Of a stretch of 32,000 bases of DNA, positions 892-20,250 are shown one piece after another. Numbering within the stretch: the first letter of the stretch is position 1; every line of letters begins with the position of its first letter. The notes beneath the pieces are model-generated. The model did not search any database, had not been told where the DNA came from, and was given only the letters and a program-made list of their open reading frames with translations. Made by a program: the position numbers and the translations under genes. The DNA comes from Opitutales bacterium (GTDB taxonomy: Bacteria; Verrucomicrobiota; Verrucomicrobiia; Opitutales; Coraliomargaritaceae): positions 55,406 through 87,405 of the forward strand of contig JBMYVL010000007.1 of NCBI GenBank assembly GCA_049606355.1. The letters run 5' to 3'.

Positions 892-903
892 CGCCGCGAT
901 CAA

Positions 904-2532: not shown

Positions 2533-2577
2533 AAATTAGGCAGAGCGCAACCGGACAAATCGCGCCTTGTGCTGAAA

Positions 2578-2601
2578 TATATACCATTGACAGTATATAC
2601 C
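2578..2601. promoter_or_regulatory. candidate promoter/operator in the cstA-arsR divergent spacer: two TATATACC boxes flanking a TTGACA hexamer
   Basis: TATATACC occurs at 2578-2585 and 2594-2601, 16 nt apart. TTGACA lies at 2587-2592. GTATATAC (2593-2600) is itself a perfect palindrome. This is the only AT-rich element in the 80-nt spacer. Confidence 0.3.
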
Positions 2602-2612
2602 CAATAAAGCAT

Positions 2613-3005
2613 GTGTTGAGGATCGAAGCCTCTGATCTATACCGCTGCATCAGCGATGCGCAACGCCTCCGCATCCTCAACCTGTTGGAGGCGGGTCCCC
2701 TGTGCGTCTGCCACCTGCAGGAGATCCTCGCCGCACCCCAAGTGAAAATCTCCAAATTACTGGCAAGTATGAAGCAGCTTGGTCTCATTGATGCCCAGCG
2801 CGAAGGCACCTGGATGATCTATCAGCTGACAACACCGGCTTCGGGCCTGCTACTCAACAACCTCCAGTACCTGCGGCAGGCTGCCTGCGCGGACTGCAGC
2901 CAATTACAACGGGACCTCGAGCAGCGCACACAGCTACTCACACGCCTCCAGCAACCGCAGGGCAAGTGCCCGGACAAGGTCTGCGAACAACTCGATTGCT
3001 GCTAA
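2613..3005 (+). CDS. arsR: ArsR/SmtB-family metalloregulator with a Cys-rich C-terminal extension
   Basis: [23 protein letters not shown] is the ArsR helix-turn-helix with the CVC arsenite-site motif. GTG/TTG start at 2613. The C-terminal 40 aa carry six further Cys and end in DCC. Confidence 0.85.
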
Positions 3006-3041
3006 CGCAGTGCAACCACTTCACTCGACCCACCTAAAGCT

Positions 3042-3224
3042 ATGCCCAACGAAGACAACTCCAAGCAAGACCGCACCAGCAACGAAACCACCGCGACACC
3101 GCCATCAGGGTTTTTCAAGCGTATCTTCACTAAAGTGGACGCGGCAATGAAAGCCAAAGCGGATCAAGCGGCCCAAAGCAATTGCTGTTCGGATAAGGAT
3201 GGCAAGGGCGGGAAGTGCTGCTAA
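3042..3224 (+). CDS. small hypothetical Cys-rich protein (60 aa) with an amphipathic basic helix and a C-terminal CC-x9-CC
   Basis: ATG ORF fills the arsR-permease gap, with 36 nt and 35 nt spacers. Third-codon positions are G/C-rich like the neighbours. The sequence ends ...AAQSNCCSDKDGKGGKCC. I recognise no family. Confidence 0.5.
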   Translation: MPNEDNSKQDRTSNETTATPPSGFFKRIFTKVDAAMKAKADQAAQSNCCSDKDGKGGKCC

Positions 3225-3259
3225 GCGGTTCCTAGCCCTCAACCTCAGCCCGTATTACC

Positions 3260-4213
3260 ATGCTGCACGAGCTCACCGGAGATCTAGTCTACAAAAGCCT
3301 CGGTCTGGCAGACGACTCCAGGTTTGCTGGTGCGCTGCATTTCTTCCTCTACGACAGCGTTAAGATCTTCCTGCTCTTAGCCGTAATGATTTTTGCGATC
3401 GGTGTGCTGCGCAGCTGGTTGCCCGAACAACGCTTAAAGGACTGGATGGGGCGCGGCGGGCTTTGGTCCAATGCAGTGGCGGCGCTGTTTGGCGCGATCA
3501 CGCCCTTCTGTTCCTGTTCCTCGATCCCAATTTTTATCAGCCTGCTCAAGGCAGGTGTGCCACTGGGGGTCAGCTTCTCCTTCCTCATCACCTCTCCAAT
3601 TATTAACGAGTACCTCGTCATTCTAATGGTCGGCGAATTCGGCCTGCCCGTCACCCTTACGTATCTTTGTAGCGGCTTGCTAATCGGTACCTTCGGTGGC
3701 GCGATCTTAGGCCAAGTCCGCCTGACCGGCTATCTGGAGACCGATATTTTAACGGCCGCGCCCATGGATACTGAAGCGGTGCAGCACACCTGGCTCAGTC
3801 GCCTGCGGTACGGCGCGGACGAGGCGCTGACCGTGATTCGGCAAATTTGGCTGTGGGTACTGGTCGGTGTCGCGCTTGGCGCAGGCATTCACAACTACGT
3901 ACCGCAGGCGACGATTCACTCCTTAATCACCGCCACAGGCGTCTTTTCGGTGCCGATCGCAACCGGATTAGGTGTACCGATGTATGGCAGCTGCGCCGCG
4001 ATTGTACCGGTTGCCGTCGTCTTGTTTCAAAAAGGGATCCCGCTGGGAACCGCGCTGGCTTTCATGATGGCGATGGCTGCCCTCAGTTTACCGGAAGCCA
4101 TCATGCTGCGCCGTACCATGAGACTCCCGCTCATTGCACTGTACTTTGCGATCACCGCGCTTGCCATCATCTTTACCGGCTATCTGCTGAACGCATTGGC
4201 CCAATTTCTTTAA
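3260..4213 (+). CDS. arsP: COG0701/DUF318 permease, ArsP-like (putative organoarsenical/arsenite efflux permease)
   Basis: 317-aa polytopic membrane ORF with the motif [14 protein letters not shown] typical of this permease family. It sits between arsR and arsC. Confidence 0.75.
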
Positions 4214-4269
4214 GCGAAGTGAGTACGCGAATGCCGCCTCCACTACCTTTAAGCTAAACCGAAACAATT

Positions 4270-4713
4270 ATGCCAAAACCTAAAATCCTCATTCTCTGTA
4301 CCGGTAATTCCTGCCGAAGTCACATGGCGGAAGCCATCTTACGCAATGCTGCGGGTGATTTAATGGAGGTCTACAGCGCCGGTTCAAAACCAAAGGGCGC
4401 CGTGCACCCGCTGGCGATTCAAGCCATCGAAGAGCTCGGTATCAGCACCGCTGGGCACAGCTCCGATCACCTCGATCAGTACTTGGATGCCGGCATCACG
4501 ACCGTCATCACGGTATGTGGCAATGCCGACCAAGCCTGCCCCACCTTCCCCGGAATGCTGCATCGCTATCACTGGGGTTTTGAGGACCCTCCGCATGCAC
4601 AGCGCGATGGCGAAAGTGAAATCGAAGCTTTCCGTCGCATTCGCGATGAGATCCGGCTGGTCTTCGAGGCATATGCCGCAGGCTACCGTGACGCGCTTCA
4701 GGCAACCGGCTGA
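4270..4713 (+). CDS. arsC: arsenate reductase, low-molecular-weight phosphatase (thioredoxin-coupled) type
   Basis: N-terminal [18 protein letters not shown] is the CX5R P-loop of LMW-PTP ArsC. Further Cys lie in [13 protein letters not shown]. Length 147 aa. Confidence 0.9.
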
Positions 4714-4727
4714 ACTATCGAGACCGA

Positions 4728-5381
4728 ATGCGAAATCAATTGATCGCCGAGGGGATCGGGACGTACTTCCTCTATCTGATTATCGGAGTCTGCATCACCC
4801 CACCAAGTGTGGGCGCATTGACGCCGATCGCAGTCGCGCTGGGTTTGAGCGCATTGGTCTATGCCTGCGGCCATCTATCCAAAGCTCACTTCAACCCTGC
4901 AACAACGCTCACATACCTGTGCGCGGGGACGCATCCTCCCAAAGCCACGCTTCCGTACCTGGGCGCGATTCTGGCAGGGGCAGTCGCCGCAGCAGCCACC
5001 CTACCCTGGCTGAAGCCTGCAGGACTCAGCGAAGTCACTGCGCTGCCCTTGCAGCAACCGGCCGCTTGGATCGCAGAGTTCCTGTTCACCTTTGCACTGA
5101 TGTGGGTCATCCTCAATGTGGCGATCGCCAAAGGCACCCAAAACAATCCGTTTTATGGCAGTGCGATTGGCTTTATTGTCGGCGCGGGTGCCTTTGCCGT
5201 AGGGCCGATTTCGTTTGCCGCTTTTAATCCGGCCGTCACCTTGGCGCTGTGTATCAACGGCTTCCTCGCTTGGAGCACGCTACCCATTTATATTGCGGTA
5301 CAACTGGCCGCAGCCGCCGCGGCGGGCTTCCTGTTTCGCTCGATGCACATCACCGAGCCGAGCGAGCGCGTCAACCAGTAG
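4728..5381 (+). CDS. MIP-family channel (aquaglyceroporin, AqpS-like) at the end of the ars operon
   Basis: Two NPA boxes (HFNPATT and AFNPAVT) in a six-helix hydrophobic ORF. It starts 14 nt after arsC. Confidence 0.85.
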
Positions 5382-5385
5382 CCGC

Positions 5386-5979
5386 TTACGCTTTGCTCGC
5401 CGCCAGTTTCTCAACGTATTTGGCGATCAGATCAAACTCGAGATTCACGCAATCACCGACCTGCTTGCTGTGCAAATGCGTCGCTTGCATGGTATGTGGA
5501 ATCAACCAAATTGCGAAGCCCTGGTCGTCGACCTCGGCAACGGTCAGCGAGATACCGTCGATGGCAATACAGCCTTTGTGGACGACATAGTTTAAATTTT
5601 CAGTATCCGGGTGAATCCGCAGATAAAAATCCTTCCCCCTCGGCTCGATTGCTTCAATACGGCCGGTGCCGTCGACATGCCCGGAAACAAAGTGGCCGCC
5701 CATACGCGTGGAGGGTAACACCGCGCGCTCCAAATTCACTCGGCCACCCACGCCAACTGCACCGATGGAGGTCAGCCGCACGCTCTCAGCGAGTAAATCG
5801 AACTCGATCCGATCCTCGCTGAAGTCCACCGCAGTTAGGCAGCAACCATTAACCGCAACGCTATCTCCCAATTGCAGCCCTTGCGTGACCAGGCGCGCCT
5901 CCAGAACCAAGCGCCATGCGTTGGCACGTTCCTCAAAGGCTACCACAGTACCCACTTCTTCGATGATTCCAGTAAACAT
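5386..5979 (-). CDS. ribE: riboflavin synthase
   Basis: [12 protein letters not shown]... is the canonical N-terminus. The listed ORF 5386..6024 was trimmed to the ATG at 5979. The internal duplicated barrel shows as CLTAV / SLTVAEV. Confidence 0.9.
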
Positions 5980-6064
5980 AGGGCCAAACAGGTAGCACAG
6001 GCAGGGAGTCGGCTCAACCCACAAAACGGATCCGCGCCATCCTGCGCGGGGAATACACCATAAA

Positions 6065-6139
<75 letters not shown>

Positions 6140-6225
6140 GTCCACTTACGAGAAAGAGGGTAGAAAACGATTCGCGCACCGCAAGTCAAGACTCGCTCGG
6201 TACGATGTGGAGATTAATTTGGCAC

Positions 6226-6255
6226 AAAAAAGCTCCAGCCGCTACGACTGGAGCT
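6226..6255 (-). terminator. rho-independent terminator of cysK
   Basis: 8-bp stem AGCTCCAG/CTGGAGCT with a 9-nt loop, followed on the minus strand by TTTTT. It lies 25 nt after the cysK stop. Confidence 0.7.
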
Positions 6256-6280
6256 TGTCGATTGTAAACTTACAAATGCC

Positions 6281-7240
6281 CTAGCTGGCGGTGGCCGCCA
6301 TCATTTCCTCACGGGCTTTTTCAGCTAAGGGTGTCGACAGGTAACGCTCCCCGAAACTGCAGCCGACGGTAACGATGGTCTTCCCCGCCATTTCCGGACG
6401 CTTGGCCAACTGCATCGCTGCCCAGACGTTGGCACCGGTCGAGATGCCGCCCAGGATACCATCTTGTTCCGCCAGTGCCTGCGCCGTCGCGAAGGCATCT
6501 TCGTTGCTTACCTTGATGATGTCGTCAATAATTTCGGTATTACAGTTCTTTGGAATGAAGCCGGCGCCAATCCCTTGAATCTTGTGCGGGCCAGGCTGGC
6601 CGCCGGAGATCACCGGGCTGTTTTCCGGCTCAACCGCTACCGTGAAGAGCTCCTTGCGTGACTTGATCACCTCCGACACACCGGTGATCGTCCCCCCCGT
6701 GCCAACACCGGCAACAAAGGCATCGATCTTACCCTCGGTCGCCGCCCAAATTTCCTCGGCGGTGGTTTGACGGTGTACTTCCGGATTGGCCGGATTTTCA
6801 AATTGTTGGGGCATGAAGCCCTTATCCCCATACTCAGCGACGAGTTCCGTGGCCTTGGCAATCGCGCCCGGCATGCCCTTTGGTCCCGGAGTCAGCACGA
6901 TCTCCGCACCCAGCATGCGGAGCAGCACGCGACGCTCCAGCGACATGGTTTCCGGCATGGTCAGGACCAGCTTATATCCCTTCGCCGCACAGACAAAGGC
7001 CAACGCGATGCCGGTGTTTCCCGAAGTCGGCTCGACCACCACGCTGTCCGCGCTGAGTTTTCCGGCTGCCTCCGCGGCTTCAATCATGGCCTTGCCGATA
7101 CGATCCTTCACGCTGGCGAGCGGATTGAAAAATTCGCACTTTAAGTAGATATCCGCGGCAAGGCCGTCGGTGAGTTGATTGATTTTAACCAGTGGAGTAC
7201 CGCCCACGGTATCGACGATGGAGTTGTATGCTTGGCTCAT
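6281..7240 (-). CDS. cysK: cysteine synthase A (O-acetylserine sulfhydrylase)
   Basis: [11 protein letters not shown] (PLP lysine), [12 protein letters not shown] and [10 protein letters not shown] blocks. Length 319 aa. Confidence 0.92.
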
Positions 7241-7319
7241 AATTTAAATAAATGTAGTTAGATAATCGCTTATCGAGGACAGTCAAATAACGGAGGCTGG
7301 CAAGCACGTATCCGCGCAC

Positions 7320-7345
7320 AAAAAAGCCCCGCGAGCGCGCGAGGC
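7320..7345 (-). terminator. rho-independent terminator of infA
   Basis: Minus strand reads GCCTCGCG-CGCT-CGCGGGGC followed by TTTTTT. It lies 25 nt after the infA stop. Confidence 0.7.
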
Positions 7346-7370
7346 TGTAGCATGAGGTCCTGATGCCCGC

Positions 7371-7652
7371 TTAGCGCCGGCGCGGGCCGAAGCTGCGGCG
7401 CGGTGCATTGCGATTCACCGCTGCATTGCGCAAGCGATAGATAATACGCGCCTTTTCCAAATCCTGGGGGCTCATCTCCATTTTCACCGTATCACCCACT
7501 GTGATTTTGATGAAGTGCTTGCGCAGCTTGCCGGAAATGTGTGCCAACACGCGGTGCCCATTCGCCAGTTCAACGCGAAACATCGTCCCCGGGAGTACCG
7601 CGACGATTTTACCTTCGACTTCTACATAGTCTTCGCTCTGTGCTTTTGCCAT
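7371..7652 (-). CDS. infA: translation initiation factor IF-1 with a basic C-terminal tail
   Basis: [54 protein letters not shown] aligns with the IF-1 S1 fold. Start trimmed from 7691 to the ATG at 7652. An extra 18-aa tail reads [18 protein letters not shown]. Confidence 0.85.
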
Positions 7653-7809
7653 AAATTGGTGGGAAAGCGCGTCAGAGAAAAGTTTCGCCACTGAATGTCA
7701 AGGATCGTCTATCGGCCTGGAGCGCTCCTAAAAGATTGGAAAGTAAGTAGATTTGCTTCATCTAACACGTGTATCCGCCCACTTGTACTCTTTCCCACCG
7801 ACCCACGCG

Positions 7810-8385
7810 ATGGCACTGCACCCTTGCCCATTTGAAAAAGTTTACCCTTCGGAGCTCAACCGCGACGCCGACTACTTCATGACGCACGCCTACAATGAAG
7901 CGATCGAAGCCTACCGTAAAGATGAAGTGCCGATTGGGGCGGTGATCGAGCATGGCGGGCGCATTATCGCCGCAGCCCACAACCAATCGCGCTCGACCAA
8001 CGATCCCACTGCCCATGCCGAAATTCTCGCCATTTCCCAAGCCGCACACACGCTGGGGGACTGGCGGCTCAACGAGTGCACCCTGTACGTAACTAAAGAG
8101 CCCTGCCCGATGTGCTCGGGTGCCTTGGTCATTGCGCGCATCGGGAAGGTCTATTACGGCCTGCCCGATGAGAAAATGGGCGGTGTCGGCGGGGCGGTGG
8201 ATTTGGGCGCCCTGCCACGCAGCAACCACCACTTCGAATCCATTGGCGGGGTCTTGGAGGACCTCAACCACGCGATTCTGAAAACATTTTTCGAAACGAA
8301 GCGCGCCAGCAATGCAGCGCAGAAAGCAGCGGGCCGCGAGCCGAGCGAGGCGACCCAGACGGATGCCAGCGACGCGAGCGTATGA
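7810..8385 (+). CDS. tadA: tRNA adenosine(34) deaminase
   Basis: HAEILAI and PCPMCSGAL zinc-binding motifs of the CDA fold. EVPIGAVI lies near the N-terminus. ATG at 7810 chosen over the TTG at 7753. The C-terminal tail is Ser/Ala/acidic. Confidence 0.85.
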   Translation: MALHPCPFEKVYPSELNRDADYFMTHAYNEAIEAYRKDEVPIGAVIEHGGRIIAAAHNQSRSTNDPTAHAEILAISQAAHTLGDWRLNECTLYVTKEPCPMCSGALVIARIGKVYYGLPDEKMGGVGGAVDLGALPRSNHHFESIGGVLEDLNHAILKTFFETKRASNAAQKAAGREPSEATQTDASDASV

Positions 8386-8478
8386 CGGGATCTGACATCC
8401 TCATTTGACAGGGCCGCAGCCGGTGTTCAGTGTTATGCGCTTTATCCGATTCCACTCAACCTGATACATTATAGAACC

Positions 8479-9105
<627 letters not shown>

Positions 9106-9134
9106 AGCGACCTCCGAGCAAAGCCTTGCTCCAC

Positions 9135-9166
9135 AGCCGCTCCCGCTTCGGGAAGCGGCTTTTTTT
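9135..9166 (+). terminator. rho-independent terminator of sodA
   Basis: Stem AGCCGCTCCCG/CGGGAAGCGGCT (one bulged A) followed by a T7 run at 9160-9166. A smaller hairpin GAGCAA/TTGCTC precedes it at 9116-9131. Confidence 0.75.
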
Positions 9167-9173
9167 GCGCCCT

Positions 9174-10721
9174 TTAGCGCCGCTTGTGGCTGCCTTTATT
9201 ATGCGCCGCTTTGACCTGCGCGATGCGCTTGCGCTGCTCCGGATGTTTTTTCTCAAAGGCCTTATCCCCTTGCTTCCGGCGCCGGTGCTGATCCTGAACT
9301 TCTCGGCTCTGGCGTGGAGCACCCTCACCCTCGCCCTCTGCATAGCGTTTCTCTTTACCGACTAAGTCAAAGCGCACGGGGCAGCCCTTTAGCTGAAATT
9401 CGTGAATCAGGCCCTTTTCCAGATAGCGTCGGTAAGTGGGGTCGAGGCGCTCTTTGCGGTTGCAATAAAAGCGCAGGCGCAGCGGACGGCTGCCGACTTG
9501 CACCGCGTAAAAAACCTTAAAGCGTTTAATGCCGACCAATTTGGGCGCGCGTGCCTCGAACAGTTCCTGCACCAAGCGATTGAGACGACCTGTCGGCAGT
9601 TGCAGGTCAAGACTGGCTTCGATCCCCGCTGCTGCTTCGAGCAGAGACTCCACCTTAAAGCCCTTTAAGGCCGAAACAAACAAGACCGGCGGATCCGGCA
9701 GGAAGAATAGCTGCTTGCGCAGCGAGGCTTCGTAGCTGGTCAGGAAATGCTTGAGGTTTTTAAACCCGCTCACCGGTTCTTCCTCCCAACGCGCCTGGAT
9801 GGTGTCGTATTTATTAACCACCACCACGATTGCCTTGCCGGCATCCATAATATCGCCGGCCAGCGCCTGATCCTGCTTCGTCACCCCATCCGCCGCATCG
9901 ATCACGAGAAACACCACATCCGAGCGCTCCAGGGCATGCTGCGTGCGCACATTGGAAAAGTATTCCACCGGATTGCCGACCTTGCGCTTGGAGCGTAAGC
10001 CCGCAGTATCGGCGAGGCGAAACCGAATCGACTCGCCATCCTTTTGGTAGTCCAGATCCAGCTCCACGGAGTCGCGCGTGGTACCCGGCACATCGGAGAC
10101 GATCAGCCGCGTCGAGTCGAGCAGCGCATTGCCCAGCGAGGACTTGCCGACATTGGGGCGGCCCACCAGTGAGATGCGGATCCGTTTTTCCCGATCGGTG
10201 GCCGACCCCTCGGGCTTAGGGCCCAATTGCTCGGCCAGCGCCGTTTCCAAAAAATGAATCCCACGCCCGTGCTCAGCGGAGACGCGGATCGGCGCACCGA
10301 GGCCCAAGCGCGCAAAATCCTCCGCAGCGGCATCCTCTGCCTCACTGTCCACCTTGTTGGCGATCAGCAACACCTGCTTGCCATAGCGGCGCAATTTATC
10401 GGCGACCATTTCATCCAGCGCGGTAATACCGCTGCGCACATCCACCACAAAGAGCACCACCGAAGCCGCCTGCAGGGCAAACTCGACCTGATCCTCCGCT
10501 GCCGTGGCGATCGTCTTCGGGGTCATTTCCAGCTCCATACCGATACCGCCGGTGTCGAGCAGCACATAATCATCGCGAACTTCGGTGGAGATCAAATCGC
10601 GCGTTACCCCCGGCAGGTCGTGCACGATCGACATACGCTTGCCACACAGCCGGTTGAACAGGCGGCTTTTGCCCACATTGGGACGCCCGACAAGGGCAAC
10701 AGTTCTGGAGGGATCGATCAT
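9174..10721 (-). CDS. der: ribosome-biogenesis GTPase Der (EngA) with a long basic C-terminal tail
   Basis: Two tandem G domains, each with GRPNVGKS (VALVGRPNVGKSRLFN and ISLVGRPNVGKSSLGN), followed by a KH-like domain. Start trimmed to the ATG at 10721 (MIDPSRTVALVG). The Lys/Arg-rich tail is 56 aa. Confidence 0.9.
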   Translation of the reverse strand: MIDPSRTVALVGRPNVGKSRLFNRLCGKRMSIVHDLPGVTRDLISTEVRDDYVLLDTGGIGMELEMTPKTIATAAEDQVEFALQAASVVLFVVDVRSGITALDEMVADKLRRYGKQVLLIANKVDSEAEDAAAEDFARLGLGAPIRVSAEHGRGIHFLETALAEQLGPKPEGSATDREKRIRISLVGRPNVGKSSLGNALLDSTRLIVSDVPGTTRDSVELDLDYQKDGESIRFRLADTAGLRSKRKVGNPVEYFSNVRTQHALERSDVVFLVIDAADGVTKQDQALAGDIMDAGKAIVVVVNKYDTIQARWEEEPVSGFKNLKHFLTSYEASLRKQLFFLPDPPVLFVSALKGFKVESLLEAAAGIEASLDLQLPTGRLNRLVQELFEARAPKLVGIKRFKVFYAVQVGSRPLRLRFYCNRKERLDPTYRRYLEKGLIHEFQLKGCPVRFDLVGKEKRYAEGEGEGAPRQSREVQDQHRRRKQGDKAFEKKHPEQRKRIAQVKAAHNKGSHKRR

Positions 10722-10910
10722 GCAGCTGCGAGCTAGAGCCGCTCTGCACAAAAAGACAATGCCTATGTGGCGCTGCTCCGAAGTTCACTGATTTAAGTAC
10801 GTGCGGTCGTGTTAACCGCTGCAATGCTCTGCCAGAACAACTGTCCGTAAACGCAGCGGTGCACCTTTGATATACTTTTTACCCAATTACTTTTTACAAA
10901 TCGACTGAAA

Positions 10911-10950
10911 TAGCGCTGACTGCGCTACGCATTTCTACGTATCTTATAAT
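10911..10950 (+). promoter_or_regulatory. candidate promoter/operator of the prepilin-type gene
   Basis: Palindrome TAGCGC-TGACT-GCGCTA at 10911-10927 and a perfect TATAAT at 10945-10950. The TATAAT is only 14 nt before the ATG at 10965. Confidence 0.3.
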
Positions 10951-10964
10951 CTAATTGCTTACTC

Positions 10965-11696
10965 ATGGATCAGCATAAACCCCAACTTGCCTTCACCTTG
11001 ATTGAGATGGTCGGCATTCTGGCAATTATTGCCATATTAACCGGGGTGCTGGCCCCGCCCATCCTTGAGTCATTCCGCAATGAACAGATTGAGTTGACGA
11101 TTGATTCGATAAACGATGCGCGGCAAGCCGCTGCTTCTTATCAAGAGCACTACGGAGCATTTCCACTGGATACTGTGACGGCAACAAAAGGCATTATCAA
11201 TCATCGCAAGAATCCAACCGAACCGCTGCAAGTGCCCTCCACTGGCTTTGATTTTGGTGACATCTTAGTCTACCAAACATCACTTCTAGATACTGAAAAG
11301 ACCGCAATCGGAGCGGAAACCAAGGCGGACTCCGACCGCACGACAGTTAAATCATGGGCTATTGGCTGCGCAGCAATCCATTGCCGATTGACTGCTGGTG
11401 GCGGTGACAGCGGGCTTGCTTATGGAAGTGAAGGCTTTGTTTTTAAATCAGCCGAACACGCCGCATGTGTTGTCTATTACTACCTGCCAAATATAACTCG
11501 ACAAGAAGCGGCTGGATTGGGAATAAAAATGAACGGGGCCGACCCATCTAGTCTGATAGACGATGCAATCCTTGAGCAGTCACTGATTGGTAAAACTCCT
11601 GCCGAAGGCCTGCAAATTGCAGGCACTGATACGTGGTTCATCGCTAACCAACAAGGAGCGTCTTTCGACGCGTACATCTACCTTGCGCACGAGTAA
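10965..11696 (+). CDS. prepilin-type N-terminal cleavage/methylation domain protein (type IV pilin / T2SS pseudopilin-like), orphan
   Basis: N-terminus MDQHKPQLAFTLIEMVGILAIIAILTGVL is a class III signal (xFTLIE plus a hydrophobic helix). The rest has no motif I recognise. GC content is visibly lower than the flanks. Confidence 0.7.
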   Translation: MDQHKPQLAFTLIEMVGILAIIAILTGVLAPPILESFRNEQIELTIDSINDARQAAASYQEHYGAFPLDTVTATKGIINHRKNPTEPLQVPSTGFDFGDILVYQTSLLDTEKTAIGAETKADSDRTTVKSWAIGCAAIHCRLTAGGGDSGLAYGSEGFVFKSAEHAACVVYYYLPNITRQEAAGLGIKMNGADPSSLIDDAILEQSLIGKTPAEGLQIAGTDTWFIANQQGASFDAYIYLAHE

Positions 11697-11821
11697 ACGA
11701 CCGATCCCTTGCTACTCACTTTTAATTTTTTTGACGTCAACAGACAGATGGAGCGCCGAAAACGAGCTTCATTCTGAATTCAGATAACTGAAGGCTGCGC
11801 TCGGCGCCTGGAGCTGGCGGA

Positions 11822-13009
11822 CTAAGCCTTCGAGCGCACCGAATCGCCGGCAACAAAGCGCTCGATGCGATCGCAGGCCTCGAGAATGCGCTCATAACTG
11901 GTCGAAAAGCTCGCCCGCACAAAGCCGGCACCACTCTCGCCAAAGGCCGTTCCGGGCACGACCGCAACTTCCTCCTGCGCCAACAGTTCCTTACAGAAGT
12001 CGATCGATGGCTTGCCCGAGACTTGAATCGATGGGAACGCGTAGAAAGAGCCTCTCGGTGAGTGACAGTCGAGCCCCATCGCATTGAAACGACCGACGAT
12101 CAAATCGCGACGACGATGGTAGGCCTCCTTCATCTTGGCGACCGCAGGCGCGCCGTTCTTCAGCGCTTCAACCGCCGCCTCTTGCGATAGGATCGGCGCA
12201 CACAGCATGCTGTATTGATGAATCTTCATCATCGCCTCGATCAAGGGCTGCGGGCCACAGGCATAACCGATGCGGAAGCCCGTCATCGCAAAGGCCTTGG
12301 AGAAGCCATGCAGGAAAATAGTACGCTCCTGCATGCCGGGCAGTGAGGCGATACTGGTGTGCTCGCCCTCAAAGGTCAGCTCCGAGTAAATTTCGTCGCT
12401 GATGATGAGCAGGTCTTTCTCCACCGCAAATTTGGCGAGCTTTTCGAGCTTCGCCTTGTCGGTCACGCCACCGGTGGGATTGGTCGGGAAATTGAGAATC
12501 AGCACCTTGCAACCTGGCTCCCACGCCGCTGCCACACGCTCCGGATCGATGGCAAATTGATCTTCGGCCGCCGTCGCCACCCGAATGGGTTGGGCATGGG
12601 TCAACTGAATGCTGGGACTGTAGGAAACATAGCAGGGCTCGTGGTAGAGGACTTTATCCCCCGGGTTGAGCACCGCGCGCAAAGCGATGTCCAGTGCTTC
12701 CGACACACCGACTGCGACGAGCACCTCTTTTTCAGGATGATAGCTGAGCTCAAAATTCTGCTCCACATAGCGGCTGATCTCCCGGCGCAAACGCAGCAGT
12801 CCGAGATTATCGGTATAACTGGTGTGGCCCTTCTCGAGCGCAAAAATCGCCGCCTCGCGAATATGCCAAGGCGTGACGAAGTCCGGCTCACCGATCCCCA
12901 GTGAGATGGCCTGCGGCATCGCCGCGACAATGGCAAAAAAGTCACGAATCCCGGAACGTGGCAGCCCGCTGACGTGGTCGGCCACAAAACGTTGGCTGGA
13001 GCTTTCCAT
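11822..13009 (-). CDS. class I/II PLP-dependent aminotransferase (AlaT/YugH-like)
   Basis: SGIRDFF, GIGEPDFVTPWHIREA, NFPTNPTG and FSKAFAMTGFRIGY (PLP lysine) blocks. Its ATG shares one base with the stop of the upstream Lrp gene (TAATG). Confidence 0.88.
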   Translation of the reverse strand: MESSSQRFVADHVSGLPRSGIRDFFAIVAAMPQAISLGIGEPDFVTPWHIREAAIFALEKGHTSYTDNLGLLRLRREISRYVEQNFELSYHPEKEVLVAVGVSEALDIALRAVLNPGDKVLYHEPCYVSYSPSIQLTHAQPIRVATAAEDQFAIDPERVAAAWEPGCKVLILNFPTNPTGGVTDKAKLEKLAKFAVEKDLLIISDEIYSELTFEGEHTSIASLPGMQERTIFLHGFSKAFAMTGFRIGYACGPQPLIEAMMKIHQYSMLCAPILSQEAAVEALKNGAPAVAKMKEAYHRRRDLIVGRFNAMGLDCHSPRGSFYAFPSIQVSGKPSIDFCKELLAQEEVAVVPGTAFGESGAGFVRASFSTSYERILEACDRIERFVAGDSVRSKA

Positions 13010-13491
13010 TAGGGGCTGACGGCGGGCTTATCGCCGCTCTCAGTGGGTGAAAGCAACAGGTGCCCCTGCTCCTTGTAGGCGCGCAGCATGAAATGCGTCG
13101 CCGTCGACAACACCCCTTCAACACTGGCCAGACGCTCCGAAACAAAGCTGGCGACTTCACGGAGATCCTTACCCGTGGCAAAAATCAACAAGTCATAGCT
13201 GCCGGACATCAGGTAACAGGACTCGACTGCATCGAACTGGCTGATGCGCGCCGCAAGACGGTCAAAGCCACCGTCGCGCTCCGGGCTGATTTTGACTTCG
13301 ATCACCGCTCGTACGATATCCTCCTGCGCACGCTCGGGGTTGAGCACGGGGCGCCAACCCAGCAAGATATGCTCGGCTTGTAGGCGCTCGATTTCAGCGC
13401 GCACCGCGGCCTCACTCAAGTCGAGAACTTGAGCCATTTGGGCAGTGTCGAGGCGCTCACCTTCGAGAATTAGTTGCAGGACGGAACTCAT
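13009..13491 (-). CDS. Lrp/AsnC-family transcriptional regulator (AlaR/YugG-like pairing with the aminotransferase)
   Basis: 160 aa. An N-terminal HTH (LDTAQMAQVLDLSEAAVRAEIERLQ) is followed by a RAM-like domain (AVIEVKISPE...CYLMSGSYDLLIF). Confidence 0.85.
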   Translation of the reverse strand: MSSVLQLILEGERLDTAQMAQVLDLSEAAVRAEIERLQAEHILLGWRPVLNPERAQEDIVRAVIEVKISPERDGGFDRLAARISQFDAVESCYLMSGSYDLLIFATGKDLREVASFVSERLASVEGVLSTATHFMLRAYKEQGHLLLSPTESGDKPAVSP

Positions 13492-13519
13492 AAGTGTGCG
13501 AGTAAGAGCGGCTTTGTGG

Positions 13520-13539
13520 AAAAAAGCAAAATGATTTGC
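13520..13539 (-). terminator. weak candidate terminator after the OleB-like gene
   Basis: Minus strand reads GCAAA-TCAT-TTTGC followed by TTTTTT. The stem is only 5 bp and AT-rich. Confidence 0.3.
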
Positions 13540-13575
13540 GCACCTCCCCAGGGCGCGCCGACCGTCCGAGGCAAC

Positions 13576-14466
13576 TTAGGCATCCAGAAAACCTTGAATC
13601 CGGGTGGCCACTTCAAGACCGCCATCCTCTAAAATATAATGCCCGTACTTCGGGAAGTACTCCAGCGCCGCCTGCGGAAAGATCGTCTGCCAGCGCTTGA
13701 GGAAATGACGATTGAAGCAGAAATCCTTACCGCCCCAGACGATCTGAATCGCTTTGTCCGCCAATTGCGGCAACTGCCTTTCAACTTCCTGAAGTGTGGC
13801 ATAACTCGGATGTCCCGCCCGCAGCGGGATATCTTTAACAAAATGCCAATTCGCCACCCGCGTCGCCCAGCTACGGTAGGGCCAGAGGAGGCCACGCTTG
13901 ACCGCGGGCGACAGTGGAATCCGCACCGACATCGTAGCGGCGGGACCCGCGAACCCGTTGAGCCCACGGATCATCCACTCGCCGATCCAAGGGAGCTTCA
14001 CGGCGGCAATCCGCCACGGGATCCGCTTTGAACAAAATGCCGCGGTATTCAGCAGCACTAGCTTGTGCACTGCGTCCGGGCGGCGCCCGGCGAGACCGCA
14101 ACCAATCGCCCCCCCCCAGTCGTGCACGATCAGGCTGAAGCGTTCGATCGCAAGGTGATCCATCAAGCAAGCGACATCGTCGATACGCTGCTTGAGGGTG
14201 TACGGGTAGCTCGCAGGCTTATCCGATAACCCACAACCGATGTGGTCCGGCACGATGCAGCGGTAGCCCGCGGCGCTGAGTTTATTGACTAAACCGCGAT
14301 AATAAAAGGACCAGGTCGGGTTGCCGTGCAACATAAGGACCACGGGGCCCGAGCCTTCGTCCAAATAGTGCAGTTTCGCACCCGAGGGTAGGTCCAGTAG
14401 GTTGCCCGAGTACGGATACTCCTCACGGACCTCAACCGGCAATTCAGACGCTCGTGAACGGATCAT
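13576..14466 (-). CDS. alpha/beta-fold hydrolase, haloalkane-dehalogenase-like (OleB-like)
   Basis: HGNPTWSFYYR and the nucleophile-elbow block LIVHDWGGAIG are typical of HLD/OleB-type hydrolases. ATG at 14466 was preferred because it forms an ATGA overlap with the upstream stop; the listed GTG is at 14478. Confidence 0.8.
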   Translation of the reverse strand: MIRSRASELPVEVREEYPYSGNLLDLPSGAKLHYLDEGSGPVVLMLHGNPTWSFYYRGLVNKLSAAGYRCIVPDHIGCGLSDKPASYPYTLKQRIDDVACLMDHLAIERFSLIVHDWGGAIGCGLAGRRPDAVHKLVLLNTAAFCSKRIPWRIAAVKLPWIGEWMIRGLNGFAGPAATMSVRIPLSPAVKRGLLWPYRSWATRVANWHFVKDIPLRAGHPSYATLQEVERQLPQLADKAIQIVWGGKDFCFNRHFLKRWQTIFPQAALEYFPKYGHYILEDGGLEVATRIQGFLDA

Positions 14467-15503
14467 GAATCGGGCCACTCCAGTGCCAGCATTAAACTAC
14501 TCAAGCCACTGCCGATGCCGAGCAGCGCGGCCTTTTGACCGGGGCCGTAGGCACCCGCCTCGATTGCCTGCGCCAAGGTGATCGGGCACGAAACCGAACC
14601 CACATTTCCCAAGGTCTCAAAGGTGGTGTAATCCTTGGCTAAATCGAGCCCCAGCGCCTTGAAGAGCTCGCGGGTGTGCGCCTTGCCGACTTGGTGAGTG
14701 ATCACCCGATCCGGCGTCGCAGCCGTCCAACCGGTAGCGTCGGTGAAGCGTTGCCACGCGCGCGTCGCCACGCCGATGCCGGCCGCCAACAGGGCTTCCG
14801 AATCCGTCAACATTTCCAAAGCATCCCCGGAGGTGTCCCCTTCGCACAGCGCGTTGTGCGAGGTGTCCGTCTCGCACACTGCCGCGCGTAGTGAGGGTTT
14901 GGATACATCCGTCAACTCTTTGCGACACACGACCGCTGCCACCGCCCCAGCGCCGATCGTCAAATTCGCAAAATAGGGTTTAATGGTCTGGCGCGTCAGT
15001 TCCGGATGGTGCAATTGCTGAATGGTATGCTCCACCAACGGTCGCCCATTTTCCCCGGAGCAAATGAGTGCGCGCTCGATTTGACCGCTCTCGATCATGC
15101 TACCCGCGACCACCAATGCGTTGAGGAAGCCTAAGCAGGCATTCGAAAGGTCAAAGATCTGGGTGCCGCCGGACAGCCCGAGTAAGCCGTGCACATAGGA
15201 GGCCGTCGCCGGCTCCAAGCGGTCGCGGCAGACTGCCGAATGGATCAATAAATCGATCGACTCACGCGGAAAAGCGGACTGTGCCAACACCGCCTCACCG
15301 GCTTGCGCCGAAGCGGCCGATGCCGTCGTGCCGGCAGGCCAAAAACGCCGCTCCTTAATGCCGGTCATCAGCTCCAAACGCCCTTGCGGTAAGCGCAAGC
15401 GCTCATACACCGGTGCCAACTTTGCCTCGATCGCAGCGGAAGTCCACACTTCCTCCGGAAGTGCCGTAGCAATGGACTCAATGACGACGTTGTTAAAATT
15501 CAC
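14463..15503 (-). CDS. KAS III-family thiolase-fold condensing enzyme (OleA-like / FabH-like)
   Basis: Candidate Cys-His-Asn triad in FDLSNACLGF, VITHQVGK and LGNVGSVS. The C-terminus LLGIGSGLSSLMLALEW resembles OleA rather than the FabH GGGFTWG ending. GTG start. Confidence 0.8.
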   Translation of the reverse strand: MNFNNVVIESIATALPEEVWTSAAIEAKLAPVYERLRLPQGRLELMTGIKERRFWPAGTTASAASAQAGEAVLAQSAFPRESIDLLIHSAVCRDRLEPATASYVHGLLGLSGGTQIFDLSNACLGFLNALVVAGSMIESGQIERALICSGENGRPLVEHTIQQLHHPELTRQTIKPYFANLTIGAGAVAAVVCRKELTDVSKPSLRAAVCETDTSHNALCEGDTSGDALEMLTDSEALLAAGIGVATRAWQRFTDATGWTAATPDRVITHQVGKAHTRELFKALGLDLAKDYTTFETLGNVGSVSCPITLAQAIEAGAYGPGQKAALLGIGSGLSSLMLALEWPDS

Positions 15504-15621: not shown

Positions 15622-16418
15622 CTAGCTTCGCATGGCATCCGCGATCACATCCTTATCGAAGTAATTTCGATCCATCCCGGCATTAACCACGATGCCTTGG
15701 CCATTGATACCGCTCGAGGCGGGGCTCAACAGGAAGAGTGCCGTATTGGCGACTTCCTGAGTGGTGAGGTTCTGTTTCCGCAAGGTCAGTTTCTCCGCAT
15801 ACAGGTAGCTCTCGATGTATCCCGGAATACCCGCCGAGGCACTGGTTTTGAGTGGACCCGCGTTGACGGTGTTGAAGCGCACGCCGCTATCGTTACTAAA
15901 GGACTTGGCCAAATTATACGAGCAGGTCTCCAGCGCCGCCTTAATCGGTGCCATGTAGCCGTAATTTTCCGCGGTTACATCGGTTGAGGAAATACCGATC
16001 GACACCACCGAAGCGTCCGTAGCCAGATACGGCTTGAAGGCATTCGCGACCTCCACCAGCGAAAACGCCGAAATCGACGTCGCTTGCAGGAAGTCCTTCC
16101 GCAGGGTTTCATGAAAGGGTTTGAAACCGTCCGAGTAGTTGGCAAAGGCGATCGAGTGTACGATCCCATCCAGTGGGCCGTGGTCGGTGCCCACGTCCTT
16201 CGCTAGGGCTGCGATCTGCTCGGGGAATTCCACATCGCAGAGGTAGGCTTTGCGGTCGCCAAACAGCTTTTGCAAGCTCTCCAGCCGCGCCGGCGAGCGC
16301 ACGCTGTGGATCACTTCCGCGCCCTCGGCTTCGAGCGACTGGGTAATCGCCCATGCGACGCTCTTACGATTCGCCACTCCCATAACGAGGAAGCGCTTGC
16401 CTTGTAGCCCTAAGAAAC

Positions 16419-16422
<4 letters not shown>
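15622..16422 (-). CDS. fabI: enoyl-ACP reductase (NADH), FabI type
   Basis: MSFLGLQGKRFLVMGVANRKSVAWAI is the FabI N-terminus. An SDR fold with a Y...K active-site region follows (YGYMAPIKAALE). The GTG start overlaps the FabZ-like stop (GTGA). Confidence 0.88.
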
Positions 16423-16862
<440 letters not shown>

Positions 16863-16924: not shown

Positions 16925-17911
16925 CTAAACGCGCTCGAGCAGGGCCGTGGCCGCAGCGAGGCCGGACAAGGCCGCACCTTCAACCCGCGGCCCGCCAAAC
17001 GCATCGCCTGCCAAGACGACATTCAATGCCTCGACCGCAAAATACGGCTGCGGCCAGGGATTCAGCGGCAGGGTGAAGCCCCACCGGTGACAGCAGAAGT
17101 CCACCACAGCACCCGGAATAAATTCCTGCGCAGCAGCAAGCATGAGTTGACCGCGCACGGCATCACTCGAGTGCCAATGTGCCGCGGCGAATTCGGGGGT
17201 AGCGTGTAAGGTCAATGCAGTCACTTCCGGCGAGATGCCCTTCATCTGGTTATCAGCGATCCATGCCAGCGGCCCTGTGCTCGGCTTGATCGCGCCCGGA
17301 TCGGGGATGCGACTGGGAGCATCGAGAATCGCCAGCGTGGCCAGACCTTTGGCATAACGACAGTGTTGCAAGTGGGGCAACTGCTGGCCCGCCCAATTCA
17401 GTCCAGTTGTCGCCATCAGTAGCAAGGCCTGCGGTAAGGGTGTCGTCAAAATAAGTTGTTCGGCGGTAAAGCTACGGTCTTGTTGGGAGCGAGCGATCCA
17501 GCGATCATTGGTGCGTACCAAAGAGTCGATCTTTTCACCGCTGCGGACATCGAGTGTTGCCGCCAAATACTTCGGAAGCGCATTCATCCCGGAAACTCCA
17601 CAATAACGCGGGTACCCCGCCGGGTTGTTATCCCAGGGTGCCTGCCGAAACCACTCGCGAATCACTCCGGCAGCGAGCCAACGCTCAACATAAGGCTGCA
17701 GGCGCGGGTCGCGCACGGTAAAAAACTGCGCGCCATGGTCGATCCGTGCGCCGCTCATGAGGCGCGTCGATAGCCGCCCGCCGACACCGCGCCCCTTATC
17801 CACCACCAGGACACGCGCCCCCTGTGCTTGCAACTCAGTCGCGCACAGCAAGCCCGAAATCCCGGCACCGATGATCAGTACATCGACCGCATCACGATTC
17901 ACCATCTGCAT
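16925..17911 (-). CDS. NAD(P)/FAD-dependent oxidoreductase (COG3380 / renalase- or amine-oxidase-like)
   Basis: The dinucleotide fold VDVLIIGAGISGLLCATELQAQGARVLVVDKGRGVGGR lies near the N-terminus. Start trimmed to ATG 17911 (or 17905); either overlaps the upstream stop at 17892-17894. Confidence 0.72.
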   Translation of the reverse strand: MQMVNRDAVDVLIIGAGISGLLCATELQAQGARVLVVDKGRGVGGRLSTRLMSGARIDHGAQFFTVRDPRLQPYVERWLAAGVIREWFRQAPWDNNPAGYPRYCGVSGMNALPKYLAATLDVRSGEKIDSLVRTNDRWIARSQQDRSFTAEQLILTTPLPQALLLMATTGLNWAGQQLPHLQHCRYAKGLATLAILDAPSRIPDPGAIKPSTGPLAWIADNQMKGISPEVTALTLHATPEFAAAHWHSSDAVRGQLMLAAAQEFIPGAVVDFCCHRWGFTLPLNPWPQPYFAVEALNVVLAGDAFGGPRVEGAALSGLAAATALLERV

Positions 17912-18809
17912 CCTTTTGTAAGCAAGCGTGCAAGGCAGCTTCGAGCGTCGGCGTTTGCCATTCAAACCCCATCGCGCGAAGTCTTTGCGGATCGATCTGC
18001 ATATCTGCCAACAACGTTTCATCCGCCATCGCACCGAACATCAGACGCGCCATGCAAGCCGGGAGCGGTAGCAAAGCTGGGCGTCGCAACGTGCGGGCCA
18101 GCGCCGCAGTGAATGCCCGGTTGCTCAGTGCCTGCGGCGCCACCGCATTAATCGGCCCCGCCAAGGTAGCATCTTCGATCGCGCGGAGGTATACCGCCAC
18201 TAAATCGGATAAACAGATCCAACTCATGAATTGCTGGCCGGTGCCCAGCCGACCGCCGAGGCCAAGCTTGAACGGGGGTAATAACTTCGCCAGTGCCCCA
18301 CCCTGCGCACTCAGCACGATACCCGTGCGCACCTGAACCACGCGCCCACCCGCATCGCTGAGCGGCTTAGTGGCTGCCTCCCACTCGCGACAGACCTTGG
18401 CCAAAAAGCCTGCACCGCTAGACGACCGTTCATCGGTGCGGGCACGGCACGCATAGCCGTAGTAATTAATACCGGAAGCGAGAATCAACGGCGGTGGCGA
18501 ATCGCGGCGGCACAATTCAGCCACCAGCATCGCCGTGCTCTGCACGCGACTGTCCCGAATGCGCCTGCGGCGAGCCGCCGTCCAACGCTGGGCAATGGGC
18601 TCACCCGCGAGGTGCACCACGGCAGCAACACCATCGAGGGCTGTCGTATCCATCTGGCCGCGTGCCGGATCCCAACAACGCCCGTCCGGCAGAGTCGGTG
18701 CGCGCGAGAGTTCACGGATCGCATAACCACGCGCCTGCAAGGTCCGGCACAAGGCCGAACCAACGAGTCCGGAGGCTCCACTCACCACAATTGTACCCAA
18801 ATCACGCAT
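17892..18809 (-). CDS. TIGR01777-family atypical SDR (epimerase-like, YfcH/SDR39U1 type with a DUF1731 C-terminus)
   Basis: VVSGASGLVGSAL Rossmann motif, HLAGEPIAQRWT block and C-terminal PQRLRAMGFEWQTPTLEAAL. Start trimmed from 18896 to ATG 18809, 4 nt after the photolyase stop. Confidence 0.72.
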   Translation of the reverse strand: MRDLGTIVVSGASGLVGSALCRTLQARGYAIRELSRAPTLPDGRCWDPARGQMDTTALDGVAAVVHLAGEPIAQRWTAARRRRIRDSRVQSTAMLVAELCRRDSPPPLILASGINYYGYACRARTDERSSSGAGFLAKVCREWEAATKPLSDAGGRVVQVRTGIVLSAQGGALAKLLPPFKLGLGGRLGTGQQFMSWICLSDLVAVYLRAIEDATLAGPINAVAPQALSNRAFTAALARTLRRPALLPLPACMARLMFGAMADETLLADMQIDPQRLRAMGFEWQTPTLEAALHACLQKDADGES

Positions 18810-18813
18810 CCCA

Positions 18814-20250
18814 TTAACGTTTAAAGGCTTCAAAGGCTGCCAAGGCGCGCGCACGCCCCTGTGCATGCTCAACAACGGGTTTGGGGTAGTCGACATCCAG
18901 CGTGATACCTGCCGCGTCGAGAACCGCAGCCGGCGCTTCCCAAGGCGTGTGGATATACTTCGCGGGTAAACGCGCCAACTCGGGAACGAAGCGCTTTACA
19001 TAGGCGCCCTCGGGATCAAATTTTTTGCCCTGAATGATCGGATTAAACACGCGGAAATACGGCGCCGCATCTGCCCCACAACCACCGCTCCATTGCCAGC
19101 CAAGCGTGTTACTCGCCAAGTCCGCATCGACCAAGGTATCCCAAAACCAGCGGGCGCCCTGCTGCCAGTCCTGCAGCAAATGCTTCACCAACAACGACGC
19201 AGCAATCATACGCACGCGATTGTGCATCCAGCCGGTCTGCCACAACTCGCGCATTCCCGCGTCCACAATGGGGTAGCCGGTTTTTCCCATCTGCCAACGG
19301 TGTTGCAACTCTGCATCATACTCCCAGGGGAAGTTTGCATACTGCGGCTGTAAGGGCTGGTCGGGTGTCTGCGGAAAATGGTAGAGCACATGGTAGGCGA
19401 ACTCCCGCCAGTATATCTCCTTCAAAAAGACATGCGGACCCTGCTGGGATGCATCGCAATGCGTTTGGAGTGCGCGGACGATCTGCCGCGGGCCAATCTG
19501 CCCGAAATGCAGGTAGGGCGAGAGCTGGGAGGTGCCGACCTGATCCGGCCGGTCGCGCGCTGCCGAGTAATCCGCGACAGGCCCGTGTAGAAAATTTTGC
19601 AAACAGTGGTGTGCACCCGCTTCAGACACCTCCCAGCGATCTGCAAACCCGACATGCCAATCTATGTCTGGCATGAGCTGTAGCTCCTCCAAGGCGAGCG
19701 TAGGCGGCATCCGCTCGATACAACGCAGCGCCGCGACATCCACTTCGACGGGTGCCGGAGGTGTCCGCGCAGAGACCGTTTTGAAATACGGGGTATAGAC
19801 CTTGTAAGGCTGGCCTGACTGACTGCTCACTGTATGGGGTTCGTTGAGCAAAGCAGAATTAAAACTCTGGACGTCCAACCCGTCCTCAAAGAAGGCACGC
19901 TTGCACTGCGCATCCAACTCGCGCAGTGGGCTCTCGTAGCGCCGATTCCAAAAAATACGGGTCGCGCCCGTTTCACGTGCCAGCTCCTGGAGTATCTGGA
20001 GTGACGGTCCTTTGCGTAGAATCAATCCGCCACCGAGCTCGCGGAACACCCGCTGGAGGCTGTGCAAGGCATGGTGCAGCCACCATTTCGAGGCCGCGCC
20101 CGGCTGCCAGTTACCAAACGATTGTGGGTCCCAAATAAAGACTGGGACGACCGGACTGCCGGCAGCAATGGCAGCCGCCAGTGCCGCATTGTCAGCAATA
20201 CGCAGATCATTTCGTAACCATAGCAGTGTCGGAGCAGTGTTCACACTCAA
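18814..20250 (-). CDS. phr: deoxyribodipyrimidine photo-lyase (class I CPD photolyase/cryptochrome family)
   Basis: LLWLRNDLRIADNAAL N-terminus and the FAD-binding C-terminal blocks TGYPIVDAGMRELWQTGWMHNRVRM and LGWQWSGGCGADAAPYFRVFNP. TTG start at 20250 (GTG alternative at 20244). Confidence 0.9.
   Translation of the reverse strand: MSVNTAPTLLWLRNDLRIADNAALAAAIAAGSPVVPVFIWDPQSFGNWQPGAASKWWLHHALHSLQRVFRELGGGLILRKGPSLQILQELARETGATRIFWNRRYESPLRELDAQCKRAFFEDGLDVQSFNSALLNEPHTVSSQSGQPYKVYTPYFKTVSARTPPAPVEVDVAALRCIERMPPTLALEELQLMPDIDWHVGFADRWEVSEAGAHHCLQNFLHGPVADYSAARDRPDQVGTSQLSPYLHFGQIGPRQIVRALQTHCDASQQGPHVFLKEIYWREFAYHVLYHFPQTPDQPLQPQYANFPWEYDAELQHRWQMGKTGYPIVDAGMRELWQTGWMHNRVRMIAASLLVKHLLQDWQQGARWFWDTLVDADLASNTLGWQWSGGCGADAAPYFRVFNPIIQGKKFDPEGAYVKRFVPELARLPAKYIHTPWEAPAAVLDAAGITLDVDYPKPVVEHAQGRARALAAFEAFKR

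Follow-up and report, generated by a model that had tools for sequence, protein, structure and literature searches.

In the 32-kb stretch of Opitutales DNA analysed here (contig JBMYVL010000007.1; the whole 32,000 nucleotides are called the window), two overlapping genes on the minus strand form what is, judged by sequence, a genuine oleA-oleB operon of a marine, Coraliomargarita-like bacterium. That the two products are OleA and OleB is highly probable. Most likely the ole locus of this organism is split, with oleC and oleD encoded elsewhere in the genome, and we give the whole split-pathway model a probability of about 0.6. An earlier note on this DNA had described a pair of open reading frames (ORFs) of 346 and 296 amino acids (aa) joined by an ATGA overlap, and this is confirmed here by the sequence and by independent gene calls. 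The first ORF, of the ketoacyl-ACP synthase (KAS) III type, starts at a GTG, and its TGA stop overlaps the ATG of the second ORF, which encodes a hydrolase (visible in GATTCATGATCC); the longest version of the hydrolase ORF begins at a GTG at 14478 and would encode 300 aa. The same 346-aa and 296-aa products, with the same overlap, were called on metagenome contigs carrying the identical protein, and the ATGA overlap is also called in Coraliomargarita akajimensis.

The 346-aa protein is identified by its sequence as an OleA (acyl-CoA:acyl-CoA alkyltransferase, EC 2.3.3.20), predicted to catalyze the non-decarboxylative Claisen condensation of two long-chain acyl-CoAs. It carries the KAS III-type thiolase domains PF08545 and PF08541 and reached 430 bits with the OleA model NF006720 (cutoff 285), with which the OleAs of Xanthomonas campestris and Halobacteriovorax marinus scored 476 and 424 bits, respectively. 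The FabH models, in contrast, stayed well under their cutoffs (NF006829, 110 bits with a cutoff of 249; TIGR00747, 87 bits with a cutoff of 292). Similarly, the twelve best matches among solved structures were all X. campestris OleA (about 217 bits, E about 4e-63, full length), while FabH entries gave at most 76 bits. These results agree with the view of the earlier note that the ORF is OleA-like rather than a FabH. The Cys/His/Asn triad proposed there also holds: in a pairwise alignment (38% identity), E97-P98, C123, H270 and N300 fall on E117, C143, H285 and N315 of the X. campestris enzyme, and the C-terminal LLGIGSGL, taken in that note as being of the OleA kind, is conserved between both proteins. 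The Glu-Pro base, a feature separating OleA from FabH (PMC7064751), and the triad are invariant in 74+72 relatives. The window and X. campestris proteins belong to separate OleA clades. OleAs of the H. marinus type are 48-52% identical to the window protein, and that of H. marinus itself was active in a screen of OleAs with pNP esters (PMC7064751). When the PLSDB plasmids were searched by tblastn with X. campestris OleA, no match was obtained.

The overlapping 296-aa protein is, on similar grounds, an OleB-type hydrolase of haloalkane dehalogenase (HLD) subfamily III. Its domain is PF00561. NCBIfam has no OleB-specific model, and the three HLD models matched all remained below cutoff (NF002873, 142 bits of 466; NF002938, 127 of 241; NF002043, 115 of 265). 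An equal sub-threshold pattern was displayed by the OleB of H. marinus, which is encoded between oleA and oleC. The closest solved structure is DhmeA (8CKP/8OOH, 119 bits), which ranked before enzymes from HLD-I and HLD-II. DhmeA is the only solved member of subfamily III, which also includes the X. campestris OleB (XcOleB) and is characterized by an Asn/Trp/Asp/Asp/His pentad (PMC10503415). Using as references hydrolases encoded between oleA and oleC, and not the XcOleB sequence, we found 45-53% identity over about 290 aa to three context-proven OleBs (H. marinus SJ and loci L090 and L091), so that OleB and OleA are about equally diverged from their counterparts in complete clusters. The assignment to the OleB type rather than to true dehalogenases, also advanced earlier, is supported by these data. 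In the model comparison that the earlier note had proposed, the cutoff of the OleA model was passed and the FabH and HLD equivalog models all stayed under theirs, and the motifs that it quoted (SNACLGF, THQVGK, GNVGSVS, LLGIGSGL, HGNPTWSFYYR and HDWGG) were all found in the two ORFs.

To compare the constraint acting on the hydrolase, 64 distinct sequences of the window clade were aligned with 77 OleBs from complete clusters. The pentad (N49, D116, W117, D248 and H276) was at least 95% conserved in both groups, as were 58 positions in all, pentad included, that have identical residues on the two sides. There were no fixed differences between the groups, and two positions were conserved only in the complete-cluster group. 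With so many shared near-invariant positions and no fixed difference, unchanged chemistry is to be expected and thus a beta-lactone substrate would be needed, which argues for a hydrolase that keeps the cis-beta-lactone decarboxylation of OleB. One metagenome protein of 578 aa (P0247) appeared to be a fusion of OleA (21-278) and OleB (6-218) lacking the C-terminal Asn region of OleA; with that C-terminus missing, it was set aside as a probable frameshift or assembly artefact.

It had been noted before that OleC and OleD are missing next to this pair, and domain searches, tblastn, flanking contigs and related loci agree on their local absence. No ORF in the 32-kb window has an AMP-binding (PF00501) or a 3-beta-HSD (PF01073) domain. 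A tblastn search of the window with bona fide OleC yielded nothing at E<=0.01, and that with bona fide OleD yielded only a 73-aa Rossmann-motif match in a YfcH-like gene of the short-chain dehydrogenase/reductase (SDR) family; this SDR was accordingly rejected as an OleD orthologue. The canonical arrangement, in which oleC and oleD adjoin oleA and oleB, is therefore not present here. As the earlier note had it, the next genes downstream encode an Lrp regulator and an aminotransferase.

For both proteins, the nearest relatives with a name come from Coraliomargarita, Lentimonas and other Opitutales, the OleA of C. akajimensis being 83% identical to that of the window. In C. akajimensis, the locus reads photolyase, YfcH-like SDR, FAD oxidase, FabZ-like protein, FabI-like protein, OleA, hydrolase, AsnC, aminotransferase, Der, ThuA and SOD, which differs from the order of the window only by a hybrid histidine kinase that follows the hydrolase. 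NCBI assembly GCA_049596575.1 and ENA metagenomes supplied contigs 98-99% identical to the window. A metagenome scan with an OleA alignment produced 80 loci, most of which (about 70) group with the window in one clade; the scan recovered no canonical cluster, but only this clade and a sister clade of stand-alone OleA-like genes. The sister-clade proteins, about 46% identical to the window OleA (L084 8297-9346, L085 525-1574 and L087 4225-5271), are encoded without a hydrolase, dehydratase or enoyl reductase nearby, their neighbours being sulfatases, a GDSL lipase, PriA and similar genes.

In the window clade, oleA is accompanied by two further genes. The one preceding it in 69 related loci encodes an enoyl reductase (ER), and a dehydratase (DH) gene lies upstream of ER in 58. 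The best NCBIfam matches of the window ER were FabI models (170 bits, with cutoffs of 337 or more), and its sequence NYGYMAPIK corresponds to the FabI Y-x6-K motif, pointing to an enoyl reductase and not to a ketoreductase. The DH reached 108.7 bits with NF000582 (cutoff 113). To place this pair, we examined the nearest OleA clade outside that of the window (Bacteriovoracaceae/Halobacteriovorax, Smithella, Syntrophaceae and others) by five context look-ups plus the best 80 GTDB species loci. There, the ole genes are part of an extended cluster with the order KAS (FabF-like)-ACP-FAO1 (CrtI/CrtISO-like)-OleA-OleB-OleC-OleD, and FAO2, a FabG-like ketoreductase (KR), a FabZ/ApeI-like DH and a FabI-like ER lie near it on either strand. 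At least 75 of the best 80 GTDB species loci have this cluster (Bacteriovoracaceae, Smithella, Syntrophaceae and others; L090-L173), and in H. marinus SJ it occupies 1403465-1424496 of FQ312005.1 (L089 7069-20476). In some loci it is a single co-directional string of 11 genes, and a 700-735 aa protein with no Pfam match often accompanies it. Its OleC (NF006754, 624 bits; NF045786, 510 bits) and OleD (NF042422, 334 bits) are best matched by the Xanthomonas and Shewanella OleC and OleD models. The window ER and DH are 52-54% and 36-42% identical, respectively, to those of the extended clusters with OleC and OleD, and both pairs show the same NCBIfam score pattern. Thus, the window has the DH and ER orthologues of the extended cluster beside its ole genes, and none of KAS, ACP, FAO1, FAO2 and KR. 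The upstream FAD amine-oxidase-type protein was considered as an FAO1 or FAO2 orthologue and discarded, the match being limited to the Rossmann motif.

Metagenome loci of the window clade display the arrangement [KAS-(ACP)-FAO1-FAO2]-DH-ER-OleA-OleB, and an early-branching one (L083) reads FAO2-KR-DH-ER-OleA-OleB. One contig (L174), 99% identical to window positions 1-14210, extends beyond the window start and carries there, about 2 kb further on (L174 4776-6176), an FAO2 orthologue of full length (55% identity, 504 bits). This gene is 17.5 kb away from oleB, with unrelated genes between and around them (HD hydrolase, ECF sigma factor and QueA), whereas L031, a close marine relative, keeps FAO2 contiguous with DH-ER-oleA-oleB. 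These results demonstrate a scattered cluster in the genome of the window. Another taxon has an oleC that stands alone: in a Desulfosudis oleivorans metagenome-assembled genome (MAG), a gene encoding a protein 53% identical to cluster OleC (L106 10001-11653) lacks any ole companion within 10 kb and is surrounded by those for a GAF protein, MarC and an Ada-type methyltransferase. Taken together, the OleB sites constrained as in complete clusters, the scattered FAO2 and the stand-alone oleC of other taxa indirectly favour a location of oleC and oleD elsewhere in the genome.

The region between ER and oleA is not conserved among relatives, and in some it holds insertions of 2-3.4 kb with extra genes (L010/L011 5211-8578, L013 588-2867 and L019 5152-7116), that of L019 including a sigma-54-dependent response regulator. 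These are close marine relatives, and the DH-ER and oleA-oleB halves are therefore separable. In soil and peat loci (L017, L033, L041, L042, L050, L054, L055, L057, L065, L069, L073-L075 and L077), a conserved upstream block made up of an M50 peptidase, a sigma-54 response regulator and a divergent sugar-nucleotide-type epimerase adjoins KAS-FAO1-FAO2-DH-ER-OleA-OleB. This epimerase was tried as an OleD orthologue and rejected, being of the sugar-nucleotide type and 23-25% identical to OleD.

Under the split-pathway model, OleA would condense two long-chain acyl-CoAs head-to-head without decarboxylation to a 2-alkyl-3-keto acid, with the first acyl chain borne by Cys123 and the second deprotonated by Glu97 from the partner subunit. 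Two enzymes encoded elsewhere, the reductase OleD and the beta-lactone synthetase OleC, would turn the keto acid into a cis-beta-lactone, from which the translationally coupled OleB would release a long-chain cis-olefin for the membrane, presumably with Asp116 as the nucleophile and with His276, Asp248 and the Asn49/Trp117 pair. DH and ER may be part of a dedicated acyl-chain-building set (KAS, ACP, KR, DH, ER and the two CrtI-like FAD enzymes) which flanks complete oleABCD in sister lineages and probably supplies the OleA substrate. In the lineage of the window, this larger cluster would have been broken up, with DH-ER-oleA-oleB kept together and the others dispersed.

Other explanations have to be weighed against this model. 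Public databases annotate the two proteins as '3-oxoacyl-ACP synthase III' and as 'haloalkane dehalogenase' or 'alpha/beta fold hydrolase', and FabZ/FabI-like genes are their neighbours, all of which would fit ordinary genes, that is, a FabH for fatty-acid initiation and a haloalkane dehalogenase or unrelated esterase. Given the FabH and OleA model scores, the OleA-specific Glu-Pro base and the three HLD models that stay below cutoff as they do for context-proven OleB, we regard this reading as scarcely credible, and at the level of sequence-family placement it is refuted. The earlier note listed three possibilities and chose none of them: oleC and oleD located elsewhere, a pathway ending at a keto acid or ketone, or a takeover of OleD and OleC chemistry by the SDR, FabZ-like and FabI-like enzymes encoded upstream. 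The last would imply a reduction and dehydration not involving a lactone. The tight conservation of DH-ER-oleA-oleB in 58-69 related loci and the presence upstream of an SDR-family gene are what such a replacement would predict, but in about 60 complete clusters the orthologues of DH and ER (36-54% identity) are found together with OleC and OleD and are therefore not their replacements, which contradicts the proposal. Moreover, the ER motif is that of an enoyl reductase, the YfcH-like SDR resembles OleD only in its Rossmann motif, and the window has no gene able to provide OleC's ATP-dependent activation. We thus consider replacement chemistry very improbable.

A truncated pathway would lack OleC and OleD altogether, and the keto acids made by OleA would decarboxylate, spontaneously or aided by the hydrolase, to long-chain ketones or would feed another lipid; the OleB-like hydrolase would then act on a substrate other than a beta-lactone. 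Sukovich and coworkers reportedly observed in 2010 that OleA alone leads to ketones in cells. Several results weigh in this direction and against the split-pathway model. No OleC or OleD was found in about 47 kb of same-population sequence (window plus flanking contigs) or beside the approximately 70 window-clade loci, of which 48 continue for 2 kb or more downstream of oleB and 34 for 5 kb or more; neither this organism nor any other member of its OleA clade yielded either gene. When loci of equal OleA divergence are compared, the window clade shows 5-10 points lower OleB identity than do complete clusters, i.e., OleB there evolves somewhat faster relative to OleA, which could be due to lineage effects, to a lost co-translational assembly with OleC, or to a relaxed or altered constraint. 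The local absence of KR also speaks against the split-pathway model. A genome scan with an alignment of five OleCs had no Verrucomicrobiota in the best 80 of at least 600 matches, which came from Bacteriovoracaceae, Desulfobacterota and similar taxa, and it is uninformative on Verrucomicrobiota. Against truncation stand the 58 near-invariant OleB positions, all of them kept, pentad included, with no fixed difference; the fact that the sole known substrate of OleB is the OleC product; the oleA-oleB translational coupling maintained throughout the clade; and the example of FAO2, which indicates that the other cluster genes were scattered and not lost. On balance, we hold a truncated pathway to be unlikely, and the same applies to a different substrate for its hydrolase. 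It is more doubtful still that the entire OleA clade (64 or more distinct sequences from marine Opitutales and from soil and peat lineages) runs DH-ER-OleA-OleB without OleC and OleD, and equally so that such a module employs the hydrolase on something other than the OleC lactone or relies on a non-homologous lactone-making enzyme. The split-pathway model, with oleC and oleD at a distance, is the explanation that we favour.

Comparison with known systems helps to define what is particular to this locus. X. campestris OleA (PDB 3ROW, 4KU2, 5VXD and others) aligns over its full length with the window OleA and shares the NF006720 match, the Glu-Pro, Cys, His and Asn residues and the LLGIGSGL end, although the identity is only 38% and the clades are separate; X. 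campestris OleB and the HLD-III enzyme DhmeA share with the window hydrolase the alpha/beta hydrolase fold and the Asn/Trp/Asp/Asp/His pentad. The canonical oleABCD of Xanthomonas and Shewanella and the oleA-oleBC-oleD of Micrococcales have the same first and last enzymes and the same succession of oleA and oleB, but in the window clade oleC and oleD are not adjacent and DH and ER precede oleA instead. The clusters of the H. marinus SJ type (also in Bacteriovoracaceae, Smithella and Syntrophaceae) contain orthologues of OleA, OleB, ER and DH (36-54% identity, as above) contiguous with KAS, ACP, FAO1, OleC, OleD and KR, whereas the window keeps only DH-ER-OleA-OleB together. In the pfa-ole linkage of Shewanella, Photobacterium and Geobacter bemidjiensis, an acyl-chain-building set is likewise physically linked to the ole genes and feeds OleA (PMC3098273, PMC4882568, PMC6463001), but the set of the window consists of discrete, type II-like FabZ-like and FabI-like proteins (with CrtI-like FAD enzymes in relatives) and not of a multidomain Pfa synthase. 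Finally, the oleACD beta-lactone clusters (lipstatin, nocardiolactone) also begin with an OleA-type condensation and are a mirror image of the window, for they keep oleC and oleD and lack oleB (PMC7064751), while the window keeps oleB and has no local oleC or oleD.

The enzyme families involved are already known, and the occurrence of ole genes in Verrucomicrobia has been recorded before: oleABCD has been reported in Opitutae genomes (PMC5673642) and oleC in Opitutaceae MAGs (PMC10176705). In the supplements searched, we found no ole genes or ole KEGG orthology terms for Opitutae or Opitutaceae MAGs, and the supplement of an mBio 2020 article lists an Opitutaceae (Cephaloticoccus) OleA among the tested proteins, without gene context. 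Dispersed ole genes are not without precedent, since only 251 of 920 RefSeq OleA-like genes have two or more flanking ole genes (PMC7064751), and ole genes have been described as linked to acyl-supply clusters or as those that 'reside elsewhere in the genome' (PMC3098273). Judged by the literature that could be searched, a DH-ER-oleA-oleB unit conserved throughout a clade without adjacent oleC and oleD appears to be new. No description of the extended 11-gene cluster was found in that literature either, so that the combination of ole genes with two CrtI-like FAD enzymes and genes of the type II FAS kind also appears new; this novelty is more probable than that of a pathway free of OleC and OleD. 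With the extended cluster, a special precursor, perhaps an unsaturated one, could be made even where no Pfa synthase is present.

The features of the locus are summarized in Table 1. The hairpin downstream of oleB has a 7-bp stem with 6 GC pairs and could mark the end of the transcription unit, but it is a pattern match only and not evidence of function. A consensus scan gave no sigma-70-like promoter match, and there was no Rfam family match near the oleA-oleB pair, a tRNA gene being the sole Rfam match of the window. The photolyase, YfcH-like SDR and FAD genes run co-directionally into DH-ER-oleA-oleB; they overlap in C. akajimensis, and marine Opitutales (L006, L019) preserve their order. 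Whether these three genes belong to the ole unit is uncertain, and a light-linked regulation of lipid genes is conceivable. Between der and the aminotransferase gene, the window encodes a 243-aa protein that is absent at the corresponding position of C. akajimensis.

Table 1. Features of the oleA-oleB locus and its surroundings in the 32-kb window.
Feature	Position	Strand	Basis
oleA, acyl-CoA:acyl-CoA alkyltransferase, OleA-type KAS III thiolase, 346 aa	14463..15503	-	NF006720, solved OleA, aligned residues
oleB, OleB-type HLD-III alpha/beta hydrolase, predicted beta-lactone decarboxylase, 296 aa	13576..14466	-	PF00561, DhmeA, pentad
ATGA start/stop overlap coupling oleA and oleB	14463..14466	-	read from sequence
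ER, FabI-like enoyl reductase, 266 aa, Ole-associated	15622..16422	-	PF13561, FabI models
DH, FabZ/ApeI-like dehydratase, 147 aa, Ole-associated, 4-nt overlap with ER	16419..16862	-	PF07977, NF000582
Terminator-like GC-rich hairpin with T-rich tail, 18 nt past the oleB stop	13538..13558	-	consensus scan
Co-directional upstream genes: FAD amine-oxidase-type protein (about 326 aa), TIGR01777/YfcH-like SDR, photolyase	16925..20250	-	domain matches
AsnC/Lrp regulator, downstream of oleB	13009..13491		
Class I/II aminotransferase, downstream	11822..13009		
243-aa protein	10965..11696	+	prepilin-type N-terminal methylation motif typical of PVC bacteria
tRNA gene	6068..6139	-	Rfam

In the sea, Opitutales like Coraliomargarita and Lentimonas are abundant degraders of polysaccharides. 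Surveys that demand a contiguous oleABCD, or that count oleC alone, would misjudge the clade to which the window belongs. The conserved link of the ole genes with a FabZ-like/FabI-like pair suggests a dedicated supply of the OleA substrate, which in sister lineages extends to KAS, ACP, KR and two CrtI-like FAD enzymes, and such a supply route could explain unusual olefin structures in bacteria without Pfa synthases. Were the clade truly devoid of OleC and OleD, it would represent a new branch of head-to-head lipid chemistry. If, on the other hand, Opitutales make long-chain olefins, they would be an added heterotrophic source in the cryptic hydrocarbon cycle of the ocean.

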